Below are positions 44,484-48,382 of a DNA stretch of 64,000 nt, in pieces. How positions within the stretch are numbered: position 1 is the first letter of the stretch; every line of letters starts with the position of its first letter. The notes beneath the pieces are model-generated. The model was not told the DNA's origin. It searched no databases and saw nothing but the letters and a program-made list of their open reading frames with translations. The stretch lies in contig CM000155.2 of assembly GCA_000004695.1 (NCBI GenBank), forward strand, positions 2,496,001 through 2,560,000, read 5' to 3'. Position numbers and translations under genes: made by a program. Source of the stretch: Dictyostelium discoideum (lineage: Eukaryota).

Positions 44484-45285
44484 ATGGAGCAAGAAGATCA
44501 ACAATACGAGGAAGATTCTTCTCAATTCAATAAAAATAATTATGTACCAGACGATAATAGTGGTGAAAAAGAACAACCAGCAACGACCACAGAAATAACA
44601 ACAACAACGACAACAACAACACCAACAGCAATAGATAATAATGATTCAGATTTAACAGAAGATGTAATAAATGCAGTATCAAAATATAAAGATGGTACAA
44701 GTAGTAAGTCTGTCAAAAAGACAAGAAGAAAGTTTGCAATGAATATCGCAACTGATGAAGTATTTAATTTACCGCCAATGGAACAACAACAACAACAACA
44801 ACATCTACAACCACCTCTTTCACCAAATAGTGCAAGTAATACAAATTTTGGAGCAGCTGCAACTTTTAGTCCAACTTCTATACTCTCAAAAAATAATAAA
44901 ATAATCACTTCCCAACAAACATCATCTACTTCAATATCACCACTTAAACCATCACCACTTTCATTCTCTTCAGGAATTTTACCTCCAAGTTCTAGAATTT
45001 ATGAATCACCACCAACCTTGGGGAAATATGTAAGTTAAAATATTATTTTAAATAAAAAAAAAAAGTTTTAAAACGCTAATATCTTTTTTTTTTTTTTTTT
45101 TAAAAAAAAAATAAAAACAATATTTAGCCATTATTACATCATTTAGGACAAAGTTATCTTGGTAATACTTTCTCAGCAGTACCTCCAGAATCAAGTGAAT
45201 ATTTTTCCAATTAAATTAATTGATAGAGAAAGAATAAACTTAATTCATCAAAATATTCTTTCAGTAAGTGATTAGTTTTTTTAAA

Positions 45286-45334
<49 letters not shown>

Positions 45335-45355
45335 ATTATTATTATTTATTATTAA

Positions 45356-45442
<87 letters not shown>

Positions 45443-48382
45443 AATTATCAAAAAATACTAATTTTTTTTTTTTTTTTATGAAAGAATGAATTTCAATTAT
45501 TAAAATCATTAAAACACAGTGGTATTGTTAATTATATTGGAATGATAAATGATAATACAGGATTTGGTATTGTACAAGAATTTTATGAGAATGGATCATT
45601 AAGTGATATTTATAATAGATCAGGAGCATTCCAAGAATCATTAGTAGCAAAATATACATTACAAATATTGGAAGCATTAGGATACATTCATTCACAAGGT
45701 ATCGTTCATAGGAATTTAAAATCAAATAATGTATTATTGGCAAAAGGTGGTAAAGTAAAGATATCAGACTTTGCAATCGGTATTAGATCTAGTGCAATCG
45801 AACCATCCATTAGATTCTCATTGAATGGTTATCCATTTTGGACATCACCAGAGGTGCTCTCGATGAAACCATTCAATCATAAAGTAGATAGTTGGAGTAT
45901 TGGTTGTTTGATAATGGAGTTGATTGTTGGTCATCCTCCATTCTCACATTTAGGTCCAATGGAAGCATTGATTGAAATTATTAATCCATCAACAACTATA
46001 CTACCAAATTGTTTAGATGAGAATGAACAATCATTATTCTCTTTAGAGTTAAATCAATTTTTAGAATTATGTTTTAAAAAGGAACCATCCGATAGAGCTT
46101 CAGTACATGATTTACTTAGACATCCTTGGTTATCAATGTTTAATGATAGTTCATCATCATCATCATCATCTTCATCGCAAGCTCATCCAACAGTTCAATC
46201 AAATAATCTTAATGGTAATGTAAATTCTAGAACTCATGGTGAATTTTATTCTTTAGATTTCTTATCACAATTTGAACAAAATGAAAAAGAAATTTCAAAA
46301 ATTTTATCATCTGGTGATCAATTAGATTCAACTTCAAATCAAATTGATTTAAAGAAATTCCAATTTAAACATTATAATAAGAAACAACAACAACAATACA
46401 ACTATAATTATAATAATTACAACAACAACAACAACAACAATAACAATACTAATGATAATGATAATGAATGTGGTGAACAAACTGAGGAAATTAATTTATC
46501 AAGCTTATCAAAAGATGAACAAATTGAAAGATTAAAAGCAATAATTGATCAAAATGAAACAATGGCAAATAATTTAAAGTATACAATGCAAGAGGTATTA
46601 CAAGAACAAACTAAATATTATGAAATTTGTGAATCAATGAAAAGTAAAACTTTAGAGATTTTAAATCAAAATAAAACTGGTGCAAGAATTTCTGCACATA
46701 GTAATTCATTATTAAAGAGAACCAATCAAATGGCAAATGATTTGGGTAGAAAATATGAAATTCTTCAATCCAATATTAAAAGATTAGAGGATTATTTAAT
46801 TACAAAAGATGATTGTGCAAAGAAATTGGCAAATGTAGTTTACAGAAATAAAATTTCATTCGATTCCCTATTGAATCCAACTTTGGCTGCTAATTTACTC
46901 TACCAAATTGGTTCAAAAACTTGGAAAAAAGGTCAAGAGAAACGTGCTTTTGCAACTCTAAAAGATAATTTCTTATTTTTCTTTAAAAATGAAAAATCCT
47001 CTTATCCAATCGATGTAATATATTTAAATGATAAGAGGAATATTTCAATAACTTCAATTCAAGACTCTAAAAAGAAAGCATATATAATTTGTATTGGTAC
47101 AACAATTCATGATCAAAATAATTTAGATCCTTCAAATAATAACGAATCTGTGAATTTATCAACTTCACCAGGTTCACTTGTAAATAGTAATAGTAACCCC
47201 TCAATTTCAAATTCTCTTAATAATAATAATAATAATAATAATAACAATAATAATAATAATAATGGAAACCCAAATGTAATAATAACAACAAATAATAATT
47301 GTAATAGTAATAGTAATGGAAATAATATAGCGACACCTCCAATTTCAATACCGAATGGTAAAGAAGTTAAAGAAGGTAAAGAAATTAAAGAAATTAAAGA
47401 ACCAAAAGAAAAAGATAAAGATAAAGAAAAAGATAAAGATAAAGAAAAAGATAAAGATAAAGAAAAAGATAAAGATAAAGAAAAAGAAAAAGATAAAGAC
47501 AAGGAAAATAATAATAATAATAACAGTAATAATAATAACAATAATGGTAATAATTATAATAGTTCAGAAACAATTTGGTGTTTATTAGCATTTGACAATT
47601 CAAAGAATATGGAGAATTGGTATGGAGTTTTAGATAGTGTAGTTCCTTGGTATGATAAAAGAGCTTATGAAATTTCAAAACCAATGTTACCAATTGAAAA
47701 TAAAAAACATCAAAAACAAAAATCATTAGATTCAACCAATAAACAATCACCAGGAAGTTTAGGTGGTGCTGGCGGTGATGTTTCTTGGAAGAAAGAAAGT
47801 GGTGGTATTAAATTTCAAGGTGTCGTTGGTGTTAGATTGGATGATTTAATGACTCGTGAAAGTCCAACAGCTGAATTACCCTATTTCCTATCGAAGATGT
47901 TGAAATTCTTAGAAAAGAATGTCGATGAAGAAGGTATTCTTAGATTATCAGGTTCTTCAACTGAAATCCTTGAAATGAAACAACAACTTCAAAGAGGTGA
48001 ATCAATCGATTACACCTATAAAGATCCTCATGCCGTTACTGGTCTATTGAAATTGTTTTTACGTGAATTACCAGAATCAATCTTACCCGAACATTTACGT
48101 ATTCAAAGTACAGAGATCCTTTCAAATGGTCGTTTTGGTGAAAAAGAAAAAATTAAAGAAATTCAAACACTCTTAAGTAATCTTAGTAGACCTCATTACA
48201 ATGTCTTAAAACATATGTTATTTTTCGCTAAATTGGTCGTTGATAGAAGTGAATATAACAAAATGGTTATTGCAAATGTAACAACTTGTTTCTCTCCAAC
48301 TTTACGTATTCCTCCTGGATTATTTAACTTTTTAATTAATACTTATGATTTATCTTTTCCAAAATTCAATTTATCAGTTTAA
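44484..48382 (+). CDS. Pseudokinase-RhoGAP fusion protein, about 1187 aa. Exons: 44484..45029, 45147..45263, 45485..48382. S/T/Q-rich N-terminus, STE-like kinase fold with degenerate catalytic motifs, coiled-coil/poly-N/(KEKD)n region, C-terminal RhoGAP domain.
   Basis: Kinase C-lobe VQEFYENGSL...IVHRNLKSNNVLL...KISDFAIG...WTSPEV...DSWSIGCL, i.e. HRN instead of HRD, DFA instead of DFG, SPE instead of APE. N-lobe (exon 2 plus start of exon 3) VNIFPIKLIDRE...NEFQLLKSLKHSGIVNY lacks a GxGxxG loop. RhoGAP: GVVGVRLDDL...EGILRLSGS (arginine finger)...VTGLLKLFLRELPESILP...NVLKHMLFFAKLV...MVIANVTTCFSPTL. Phase-0 junctions at GTAAGT (45030) / tttAG (45145-45146) and GTAAGT (45264) / aaAG (45483-45484). 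The second intron carries (ATT)n. Confidence 0.7.
47380..47515 (+). repeat. Coding 18-bp/9-bp periodic repeat (aaagataaagataaagaaaaag)n giving a (KEKDKD)n tract inside the pseudokinase-RhoGAP gene
   Basis: KEKDKDKEKDKDKEKDKDKEKDKDKEKEKDKDKE read in frame. The antisense strand produces the spurious ORFs 47113..47541 and 47394..47750. Confidence 0.85.

Follow-up and report, generated by a model that had tools for sequence, protein, structure and literature searches.

The 64,000-nt stretch of Dictyostelium discoideum DNA that we analyzed, hereafter the window (contig CM000155.2, positions 2,496,001 to 2,560,000), contains at 44484–48382 a three-exon gene, DDB0229972, which runs from ATG to TAA on the + strand, as do all of its features given below, and encodes a kinase-like domain followed by a RhoGAP domain, that is, a Rho GTPase-activating protein (GAP) module. 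The protein predicted both by dictyBase and by an earlier first-pass annotation of this DNA, DKVILVILSQQYLQNQVNIFPIK included, is identical to the sequence listed for DDB0229972 in Table S2 of the 2006 Dictyostelium kinome (Goldberg et al. 2006, PMC1420674), which identifies the window as DNA of strain AX4. There it is classified as STE/STE-Unique, with the remarks “partial kd” and “lacks D166,” a predicted activity of “i,” and the motifs FPIK for VAIK, HRNLKSNN for HRD, and DFA for DFG, while the text of the same paper mentions a RhoGAP domain on a unique STE kinase (PMC1420674). The first-pass annotation had not recognized this architecture, but the reading of DDB0229972 as a dead kinase joined to a RhoGAP domain has been in the literature for about two decades and is not new. 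The kinome entry is silent on the out-of-frame N-lobe strand, the PH domain, the helical region, and the relatives outside Dictyostelium that we describe here (PMC1420674). Full-text literature searches found no functional paper on the gene and no name for it. D. discoideum has 47 RhoGAP genes, a small subset of which has been studied functionally (2021 survey, PMC8923023 supplement), and 20 Rho-family GTPases (PMC8305917).

Results

A Single Gene Encodes the Kinase-Like and RhoGAP Domains

In the first-pass model, exons at 44484–45029, 45147–45263, and 45485–48382 join in frame to give a protein of 1186 residues. The surroundings are extremely AT-rich and contain tracts of poly-N and poly-Q, and the introns are of the GTAAGT...AG type. 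Exon 1 (44484–45029) is open from its ATG and encodes a low-complexity N-terminal region that ends in LGKY, the start of the kinase domain, while exon 3 (45485–48382), with 965 stop-free codons, encodes the remainder of the kinase domain, a linker, a helical region, a split PH domain, the RhoGAP domain, and the stop. Intron 2 (45264–45484), whose proposed boundaries are backed by three sister genomes, consists almost entirely of an (ATT)n microsatellite; the repeat tract is ~150 nt long and is absent from the shorter introns of Dictyostelium citrinum and Dictyostelium firmibasis. A homology search found no D. discoideum copy of the gene, and exact-sequence look-ups with the first-pass model, a frame-corrected model reading EYFPIK, the 946-aa exon 3 open reading frame (ORF), and the exon 1 ORF returned no match.

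The profile search that the first-pass annotation had suggested returns both domains (Pkinase at 3.8e-53 and RhoGAP at 7.1e-31). Since the kinase C-lobe and the RhoGAP domain share a single uninterrupted 946-codon ORF (45542–48382), the fusion claimed at first pass is real and not a gene-model artifact, independently of how the upstream introns are spliced.

The RhoGAP Domain Retains Its Catalytic Residues

The RhoGAP domain (47813–48349) matches Pfam RhoGAP (PF00620) with 107.5 bits against a cutoff of 24.5, residues 1020–1164 of the protein covering positions 1–146 of the 148-position profile. Its nearest solved chains are the GAP domains of RalBP1, p190RhoGAP, ARHGAP12/15, and p50RhoGAP. 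To follow individual residues, numbered here on the exon 3 product, we compared the seven dictyostelid sequences of the window, D. citrinum, D. firmibasis, Cavenderia, Acytostelium, Synstelium, and one EukProt dictyostelid. The arginine finger that the first-pass annotation had read in GILRLSGS is indeed kept: R820 (codon 47942–47944) lies in a GILRLSG stretch that aligns with EGIYRVSG of RalBP1 and p190, and it is invariant. The Lys/Arg pair and the Asn of RhoGAP domains, whose roles in the transition state are established from work on p50RhoGAP, are invariant as well. They correspond to K856 and R860 in LLKLFLRELPE (48050–48064) and to N931 in NKMVIANVTTCF (48275–48277), which aligns with MNIQNIS and MTSENLS of solved GAPs. 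With every catalytic residue that we tested kept, the RhoGAP domain is apparently functional.

The Intervening Segment Carries a Predicted Helical Region and a Split PH Domain

The segment between the two recognized domains contains two further conserved elements that the first-pass annotation overlooked. The first is a helical, probably coiled-coil region of ~106 aa (46496–46813) ending in NIKRLEDYLITKDD, a motif found in Mastigamoeba too. An AlphaFold2 model of the 965-aa exon 3 product, built from a seven-sequence alignment and used for secondary-structure consistency alone, shows long helices over this region, albeit at low confidence.

The second is a PH domain interrupted by a 150-residue low-complexity insert (47117–47566) of poly-N and KDKDKE repeats. 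Its N-terminal half (46895–47116, GSKTWKKGQEKRAFATLKDNFLFFFK) covers the β1–β4 region, and its C-terminal half (47567–47662) runs from WCLLAFDN to MENWYGVLDSVVPWYDKR. Pfam does not detect a PH domain in the intact protein, but once the insert is excised the two halves together match PF00169 with 30.4 bits (cutoff, 25.1 bits; E 5.9e-7). Among homologues without the insert, the score is 41.1 bits for Mastigamoeba and 39.6 bits for the metagenomic protein P0196 (described below). In Synstelium the insert is short, and Mastigamoeba and the fragment P0139 lack it. The basic β1–β2 stretch of the domain, GSKxWKKGQEK, is invariant in the seven dictyostelid sequences. Elsewhere in the window, a SET-domain ORF (39539–41077, + strand) shows a comparable arrangement: its match spans residues 21–482 for a profile of 105 positions, and the domain is thus split by a very large insert, resembling the PH domain of DDB0229972.

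The Kinase-Like Domain Is Predicted to Be Catalytically Dead

The kinase-like domain (45128–46141) is assigned to the STE group and scores 181–191 bits with Pfam Pkinase (PF00069), depending on the frame used for its N-lobe. In the 1186-residue model the match extends over residues 196–437 and profile positions 21–263, with 181 bits against a gathering score of 31.7, in keeping with the kinase fold assigned at first pass. Its nearest solved structures are PAK5, PAK4, and MST3 (E 1.6e-40). As had been claimed, all three catalytic landmarks are substituted when aligned to PAK5: HRN (45707–45715) stands under the HRD of HRDIKSD, so that the catalytic-base Asp is replaced by Asn; DFA (45767–45775) replaces DFG, with the metal-binding Asp kept; and SPE (45845–45853) replaces APE. 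The catalytic-loop Asn downstream of HRN is retained (HRNLKSNN).

How far these substitutions extend can be seen in the dictyostelid alignment. The three group-4 species (the window, D. citrinum, and D. firmibasis) read HRN, GQSYLG, DFA, and SPE at the catalytic base, glycine loop, metal-binding, and activation-segment motifs, respectively. The corresponding motifs are HRN, GTGYLG, DFG, and SPE in Cavenderia; HRN, GCGYYG, DFA, and APE in Acytostelium; HKN, GHGYFG, DFG, and APE in Synstelium; and HKN, GQGCFG, DFG, and APE in the EukProt dictyostelid. The triple substitution thus holds for group-4 Dictyostelium but not elsewhere, since DFG is preserved in Cavenderia, Synstelium, and the EukProt dictyostelid, and APE in Synstelium, Acytostelium, and the EukProt dictyostelid. 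H(R/K)N, by contrast, occurs in all seven (7/7), every orthologue that covers the region having lost the catalytic base, as do the β3 Lys (K72), the catalytic-loop Asn (N171), and the DFG Asp (D184); GxGxxG is intact in four of the seven (4/7). Across this alignment, loss of the catalytic base is the sole lesion common to all dictyostelids, the other decay being lineage-specific. In bioinformatic terms, a pseudokinase is recognized by loss of at least one of K72, D166, and D184, conserved in orthologues, and here it is D166 that is gone; the kinome paper judged inactivity by the same three residues (PMC1420674). The domain is therefore predicted to be dead. Because the glycine loop and DFG have decayed further in the group-4 lineage, nucleotide binding may have been lost there.

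The retained residues could also be taken to mean that the domain is not dead but capable of weak or atypical phosphotransfer, with phosphorylation of itself or of a partner controlling the GAP. The β3 Lys, catalytic-loop Asn, and DFG Asp are present in all orthologues and GxGxxG in four of seven, and there are precedents: HER3, which has the same Asp166-to-Asn change, binds ATP at ~1 μM through Lys72, Asn171, and Asp184 and shows weak trans-autophosphorylation, and JAK2 JH2 is weakly active (PMC4718504). Yet the catalytic base is missing in every family member examined, replaced by Asn in dictyostelids and by Ala in the two Mastigamoeba-type proteins presented below, the glycine loop, DFG, and APE are all degraded as well in the lineage of the window, and the kinome authors scored the protein inactive (PMC1420674). 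We consider residual activity of this kind unlikely.

Among active kinases, the top-scoring ones in a homology search are of the STE11/Cdc15 type, with 34–41% identity over the kinase domain. In a neighbor-joining tree the dictyostelid sequences form a monophyletic clade (100%) placed beside Cdc15/SepH kinases with weak support (52%). Membership in Cdc15 proper was nonetheless rejected, because the C-terminal tail that defines this type (PF24768) has no Pfam match in DDB0229972, whose C terminus is instead occupied by PH-RhoGAP.

The Family Extends to Archamoebae

Orthologues with the same layout are found in D. citrinum, D. firmibasis, Cavenderia, Acytostelium, Synstelium, and Heterostelium. 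When 1.84 billion representative sequences were scanned exhaustively with HMMER using a dictyostelid orthologue as query, the matches that extended beyond the kinase domain came from few proteins, among them those of the dictyostelids and a PH-RhoGAP fragment on a 1-kb metagenome contig. Another protein, m51a1_g7584, has Pfam matches to Pkinase, PH, and RhoGAP and comes from Mastigamoeba balamuthi, to which the m51a1 prefix belongs (PMC8136499). From kinase and helices to PH and GAP, it aligns collinearly with the window protein (E 6e-41 and 2e-24). Its kinase-like domain reads HGALHAGN, with no catalytic Asp, and DLN for DFG, and it keeps GQGYQG, the Lys, and APE. P0196, found on metagenome contigs, is a second protein of the Mastigamoeba type, encoded by an intronless ORF of 914 aa. 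By this collinearity, the family reaches beyond Dictyostelia to an archamoeba.

The same comparisons bear on whether the kinase and GAP halves could be separate genes that have been wrongly merged. Orthologue gene models are indeed inconsistent: that of Acytostelium is split into two adjacent genes (P0123 and P0127), that of Synstelium (P0004) is fused to an upstream WD40 gene, and parts of the kinase domain are missing from those of Heterostelium (P0005, which lacks the C-lobe) and Cavenderia (P0122). However, everything from HRN to the RhoGAP stop lies in one uninterrupted ORF in the window, and likewise in D. citrinum and D. firmibasis, the intronless ORF of P0196 holds both parts, and conservation of the linker and the helical region, in collinear order, reaches Mastigamoeba. 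A wrong merge is effectively refuted.

Two further proteins stand close to the family. In P0066 of Pelomyxa schiedti, the kinase domain is Cdc15-like and reads HRNLKAAN and DFS, and its glycine loop is degenerate. Behind this domain come a short helical region and a legumain domain, the latter probably joined to it in a merged gene model. P0066 is an archamoebal dead kinase of this type, and PH-RhoGAP is absent from its gene model. In Balamuthia mandrillaris, a protein encoded at L004 8001–13434 combines a canonical Cdc15-like kinase with a helical stretch and with a similar PH domain whose last residues are PWYER (PWYDKR in the window product). A tblastn search of 21 kb for a RhoGAP downstream of it gave nothing better than E = 2, and the gene that follows codes for IF3. 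Compared by BLASTP with the Balamuthia protein, the window product gave weak PH matches only, whereas HMMER with P0003 as query had linked the kinase and the PH domain of the Balamuthia protein in a single stretch. It may be an active, GAP-less relative of the family, which is possible but not established.

The Kinase-Like Domain Evolves Under Constraint Comparable to That on the GAP

We compared exon 3 of the window with that of D. citrinum and of D. firmibasis by the Nei–Gojobori method, calculating the ratio of nonsynonymous to synonymous substitution rates (dN/dS; the two values are given in this order). The ratio is 0.069 and 0.042 for the kinase part, 0.035 and 0.041 for the helical region, 0.011 and 0.009 for the N-terminal half of the PH domain, 0 and 0 for its C-terminal half, and 0.022 and 0.027 for RhoGAP. 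It rises to 0.22 and 0.28 in the linker and to 0.30 and 0.53 in the PH insert. Every folded domain is thus under strong purifying selection, the dead kinase included, and because the latter is as constrained as the GAP, a noncatalytic function is favored over decay.

The Glycine-Loop Strand Is Encoded One Base Out of Frame

According to the first-pass annotation, the N-lobe exon encodes no glycine-rich loop. This holds in that no canonical GxGxxG is present, the remnant GQSYLG being GxxxxG, but the strand itself is encoded, starting from an acceptor upstream of the one previously chosen. Both dictyBase and the first-pass annotation place intron 1 at 45030–45146. The donor GTAAGT at 45030 is conserved in three sister genomes, but these do not splice at 45146; the AG used in the three sister loci aligns with 45127, which gives an intron of 98 nt (45030–45127) and an exon 2 of 136 nt (45128–45263) that carries β1, the glycine-loop remnant, β2, and β3 and is one base too long. 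From this acceptor, 19 nt upstream of 45146, the window encodes a degenerate glycine-loop strand, LGQSYLGNTFSAV, within a reading, PLLHHLGQSYLGNTFSAVPPESSEYF, that matches QLLHHLGQSYLGNTFSAVPPDSSEYVAIK of D. citrinum and D. firmibasis and is in a different frame from the PIKLIDRER that follows. In the two sister species the N-lobe reads continuously as GKYQLLHHLGQSYLGNTFSAVPPDSSEYVAIKLIDRER. The remnant, LGQSYLGN (45143–45166), is identical in both, and its GQSYLG column aligns with GQGCFG, GHGYFG, GTGYLG, and GCGYYG of more distant orthologues as well as with GKGGFG of active Cdc15-like kinases.

Aligning the window DNA with three sister loci, two of D. citrinum and one of D. firmibasis, locates the cause. 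At 45197–45212 the window has one additional base (GAATA-TGTTGCAATT, compared with GAATATTTTTCCAATT in the sisters), and the frame shifts at 45202–45208, where TTTTTCC stands for TGTTGC, a difference of one extra base and two substitutions. Deleting any one base in 45202–45210 brings EYFPIK or EYFSIK into frame, moves the start of the Pkinase match from profile position 21 to 3, so that it covers 3–263, and raises the score by ~7 bits. The β3 Lys of the VAIK motif (codon 45213–45215), an invariant column (K33) of the orthologue alignment, is retained. An exon 2 that begins after 45146 stays in frame because the 19-nt skip compensates for the extra base; the first 20 residues of this exon in the dictyBase and first-pass model, DKVILVILSQQYLQNQVNIF, are consequently glycine-loop DNA read out of frame. 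The reference sequence, then, does encode this strand of the N-lobe, with the frame displaced by one base. A micro-intron that would rescue the frame was considered and rejected: the frame-restoring GT..AG removals in exon 2 measure only 1–76 nt (the introns of this gene measure 98–221 nt), and each of them deletes conserved strands or the β3 Lys. A metagenome and metatranscriptome scan with the exon 2 stretch, allowing a variable gap over the indel, gave 0 matches. Whether the extra base is an error of the reference or a real change in D. discoideum we judge to be about evenly balanced.

If the change is real, splicing at 45146 could restore the frame, leaving strain AX4 with a truncated or remodeled N-lobe in which an unrelated 20-residue peptide replaces β1, the glycine loop, and β2, and which does not bind nucleotide. 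The window sequence does carry the base, the 45146 acceptor (TCATTTAG/G) yields an uninterrupted frame of 1186 codons, the indel lies beside two substitutions within 6 bp and so looks more like a complex mutation than a miscounted homopolymer, and the glycine loop and DFG were already relaxed in the group-4 lineage. On the other side, the differences between the window and each sister upstream of the indel are 4 synonymous to 2 nonsynonymous in the orthologue frame, compared with 0 to 6 in the frame of the 45146 acceptor, so that selection must have acted on the orthologue frame during most, if not the whole, of the period since the species diverged. Moreover, the AG at 45146 is present in all sisters only because His-Leu-Gly is encoded there and serves none of them as an acceptor, 45127 is the first AG downstream of the polypyrimidine tract, and the rest of the kinase domain evolves at an ω of 0.04–0.07. 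A remodeled N-lobe is a possibility that we regard as doubtful.

If, instead, the base is real and splicing takes place at 45127, the frame meets a TAA at 45210–45212 and the AX4 allele would be a recent null, its product ending in ...EYFSN* so that the strain makes no kinase-PH-GAP protein. Inactivating lesions are known from axenic laboratory strains, an example being the axeB deletion (PMC8923023 supplement). Against this, exon 3 is an open frame of 965 codons with very low dN/dS in every domain, so that inactivation would have to be very recent, and we found no independent sign of loss. We hold a null allele to be very unlikely.

Whatever the origin of the extra base, the claim that no glycine-loop strand is encoded is wrong. 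In the reference gene model, ~20 N-lobe residues appear to be mistranslated, which makes the base at 45202–45208 relevant to anyone expressing the protein and is probably the reason for the “partial kd” label in the kinome catalogue.

Other Features of the Locus

Within the low-complexity region of exon 1, a motif running from DVINAVSKYKDG to KKTRRKFAMNIA (44661–44750) has a basic RRKFA core that is recognizable in all dictyostelid orthologues, in the versions KKNRRKFAMNFA, KRNRRKFAITM, KRNRRKFAMP, and RRNRRNFAIP. It has no Pfam match and could be a localization signal or a pseudosubstrate-like element.

The genes flanking DDB0229972, at 42886–43938 (+ strand) and at 48546–49289 and 49382–49726 (both − strand), are paralogues that share the pattern ...LG.FTWNQE.GG.KLQFPATL.LTG.DGQ... 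and for which no Pfam match was found. The downstream one runs into an ORF with an expansin-like CGECYELTGP motif. On gene size and order alone, the flanks keep their synteny in D. citrinum and D. firmibasis. Farther away in the window lie a tag-type serine-protease/ABC-transporter gene (5320–9216 and 9394–10713, + strand) with subtilase (Peptidase_S8), ABC_membrane, and ABC_tran domains; an ORF (12062–13321, − strand) with the helix-turn-helix DNA-binding domain of Tc5 transposases (53 bits), which is a pogo/Tc5-derived gene or element; and a kinase gene with an N-terminal PH domain (61594–63291, − strand; PH 41 bits, Pkinase 162 bits).

Discussion

On balance, and with some reserve, we favor the reading that DDB0229972 is a member of a conserved amoebozoan family composed of a disordered N terminus, a STE-group (Cdc15/Ste20-like) pseudokinase, a helical or coiled-coil region, a PH domain, and a RhoGAP domain, in which the pseudokinase docks or gates a membrane-placed Rac GAP. 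The C-terminal domain would act as a functional GAP on at least one of the 20 Rac-type Rho GTPases, and the PH domain, probably aided by oligomerization through the helices, would place this GAP on a membrane. The kinase-like domain would not phosphorylate; it would act as a module of the HER3 or JAK JH2 kind, serving either as a docking site for a partner or as an allosteric gate on the GAP, and it is probably nucleotide-binding, at least ancestrally. A docking or regulatory role of this domain in Rho GTPase signaling is plausible.

Several observations weigh against this interpretation. The decay of the glycine loop to GQSYLG and of DFG to DFA in the group-4 species, the window included, tells against nucleotide binding, and the extra base, if real and combined with use of the 45127 acceptor, would put a premature stop into AX4 mRNA. 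The AlphaFold2 model, with a mean predicted local distance difference test score (pLDDT) of 40.5 and a predicted template modeling score (pTM) of 0.26, is too poor for interdomain contacts or a fold search. Finally, GAP activity, substrate, lipid binding, oligomerization, and nucleotide binding are all read from the sequence, our literature searches having found no experiment on the protein.

The affinity of the kinase domain to Cdc15/SepH hints at a link with cytokinesis, which is speculation. A more ambitious reading would see an ancient family of Dictyostelia and Archamoebae, with a canonical GAP-less relative in Balamuthia, in which a Cdc15-derived domain that had lost its catalytic base persisted as a switch sensing nucleotide or a partner, exerts allosteric control over a PH-targeted Rac GAP, and so couples septation or mitotic-exit signaling to local inactivation of Rac, for example in cytokinesis. 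Put forward jointly with the proposition that the AX4 reference or the gene model is wrong by one base and that the true protein has a complete N-lobe, it has in our view only a small chance of being right.

The core of what we report repeats a catalogue entry of 2006 and leaves the field unchanged. To that entry are added the frame problem in the N-lobe, the helical region and the PH domain, the observation that of all the lesions just the loss of the catalytic base is ancient, and the extension to an archamoeba. With the helical and PH domains, the protein comes closer to a membrane-targeted Rac GAP with a regulatory pseudokinase than to a bare two-domain fusion. A dead kinase that is constrained across Dictyostelia and has a collinear archamoebal homologue offers a clean and genetically tractable case in which to study what a pseudokinase does for a GAP.

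Several known systems share parts of this layout. Within Dictyostelium, Roco9, Roco10, and Pats1 likewise combine RhoGAP and kinase domains (PMC8923023 supplement), but their RhoGAP is N-terminal and their kinase belongs to the TKL group within an LRR-Roc-COR context. DDB0229972 has no Pfam match to LRR, Roc, or COR, and membership in the ROCO family was rejected.

TBCK, which carries a rhodanese domain, is alike in that a kinase domain predicted to be inactive is fused to a GAP for small GTPases. It differs in that this GAP is of the TBC (Rab) type, in having no PH or RhoGAP domain, and in the family of its kinase domain; as Pfam finds no TBC match in DDB0229972, membership was rejected and the resemblance is one of analogy only. 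Dictyostelium TBCK was also scored inactive in the kinome (PMC1420674).

A STE-group kinase N-terminal to RhoGAP is found in three further proteins. P0221, on assembly GCA_003024175.1, which we take to be that of Planoprotostelium fungivorum, has HKN for HRD, while P0174 has canonical motifs; the third is the Phytophthora MAP4K PITG_11253 (PMC3019232). Unlike DDB0229972, all three are Ste20/MST-like and not Cdc15-like and have neither a PH domain nor the conserved helical region, and these STE20-like kinase–RhoGAP proteins look like independent fusions. Conversely, Cdc15, SepH, and Dictyostelium SepA-type kinases, the best-scoring active kinases and weakly supported tree neighbors, are active enzymes with HRD or HCD, DFG, and APE, and have C-terminal ARM-like tails in place of PH-RhoGAP.

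The closest parallels for the pseudokinase itself are HER3/ErbB3 and JAK JH2, in which the catalytic-base Asp is also replaced (by Asn in HER3) with the β3 Lys, catalytic-loop Asn, and DFG Asp kept, and whose pseudokinase domains bind ATP and act allosterically (PMC4718504). These domains belong, however, to the tyrosine-kinase group, occur in receptors and JAKs, and are homologous in the kinase fold alone, whereas the domain of DDB0229972 is assigned to the STE group and tethered to a GAP. It may bind ATP as HER3 does, but the decay of the glycine loop and DFG in this species urges caution.

For the C-terminal half, the counterparts are Rac GAPs of the ARHGAP9/12/15/27 type, in which a PH domain also lies directly N-terminal of RhoGAP and of which ARHGAP12/15 are among the nearest solved chains (E ~1e-14). 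They have no kinase-like domain and no such helical region, and RalBP1 and p190 score slightly better, so that no orthology is implied.

The order of the whole protein is reproduced in m51a1_g7584, annotated as “putative cdc15,” and in P0196. They differ from the window protein in that the catalytic Asp has become Ala (HGALHAGN and HGAVHANN, respectively), that DLN and DIC stand for DFG, that the PH domain is uninterrupted, and that overall identity is only 24–30%. Nevertheless, kinase-like domain, helical region, PH, and RhoGAP follow one another collinearly throughout, the catalytic Asp is lost in both, and their GAP domains still have the Arg finger, the Lys/Arg pair, and the Asn.

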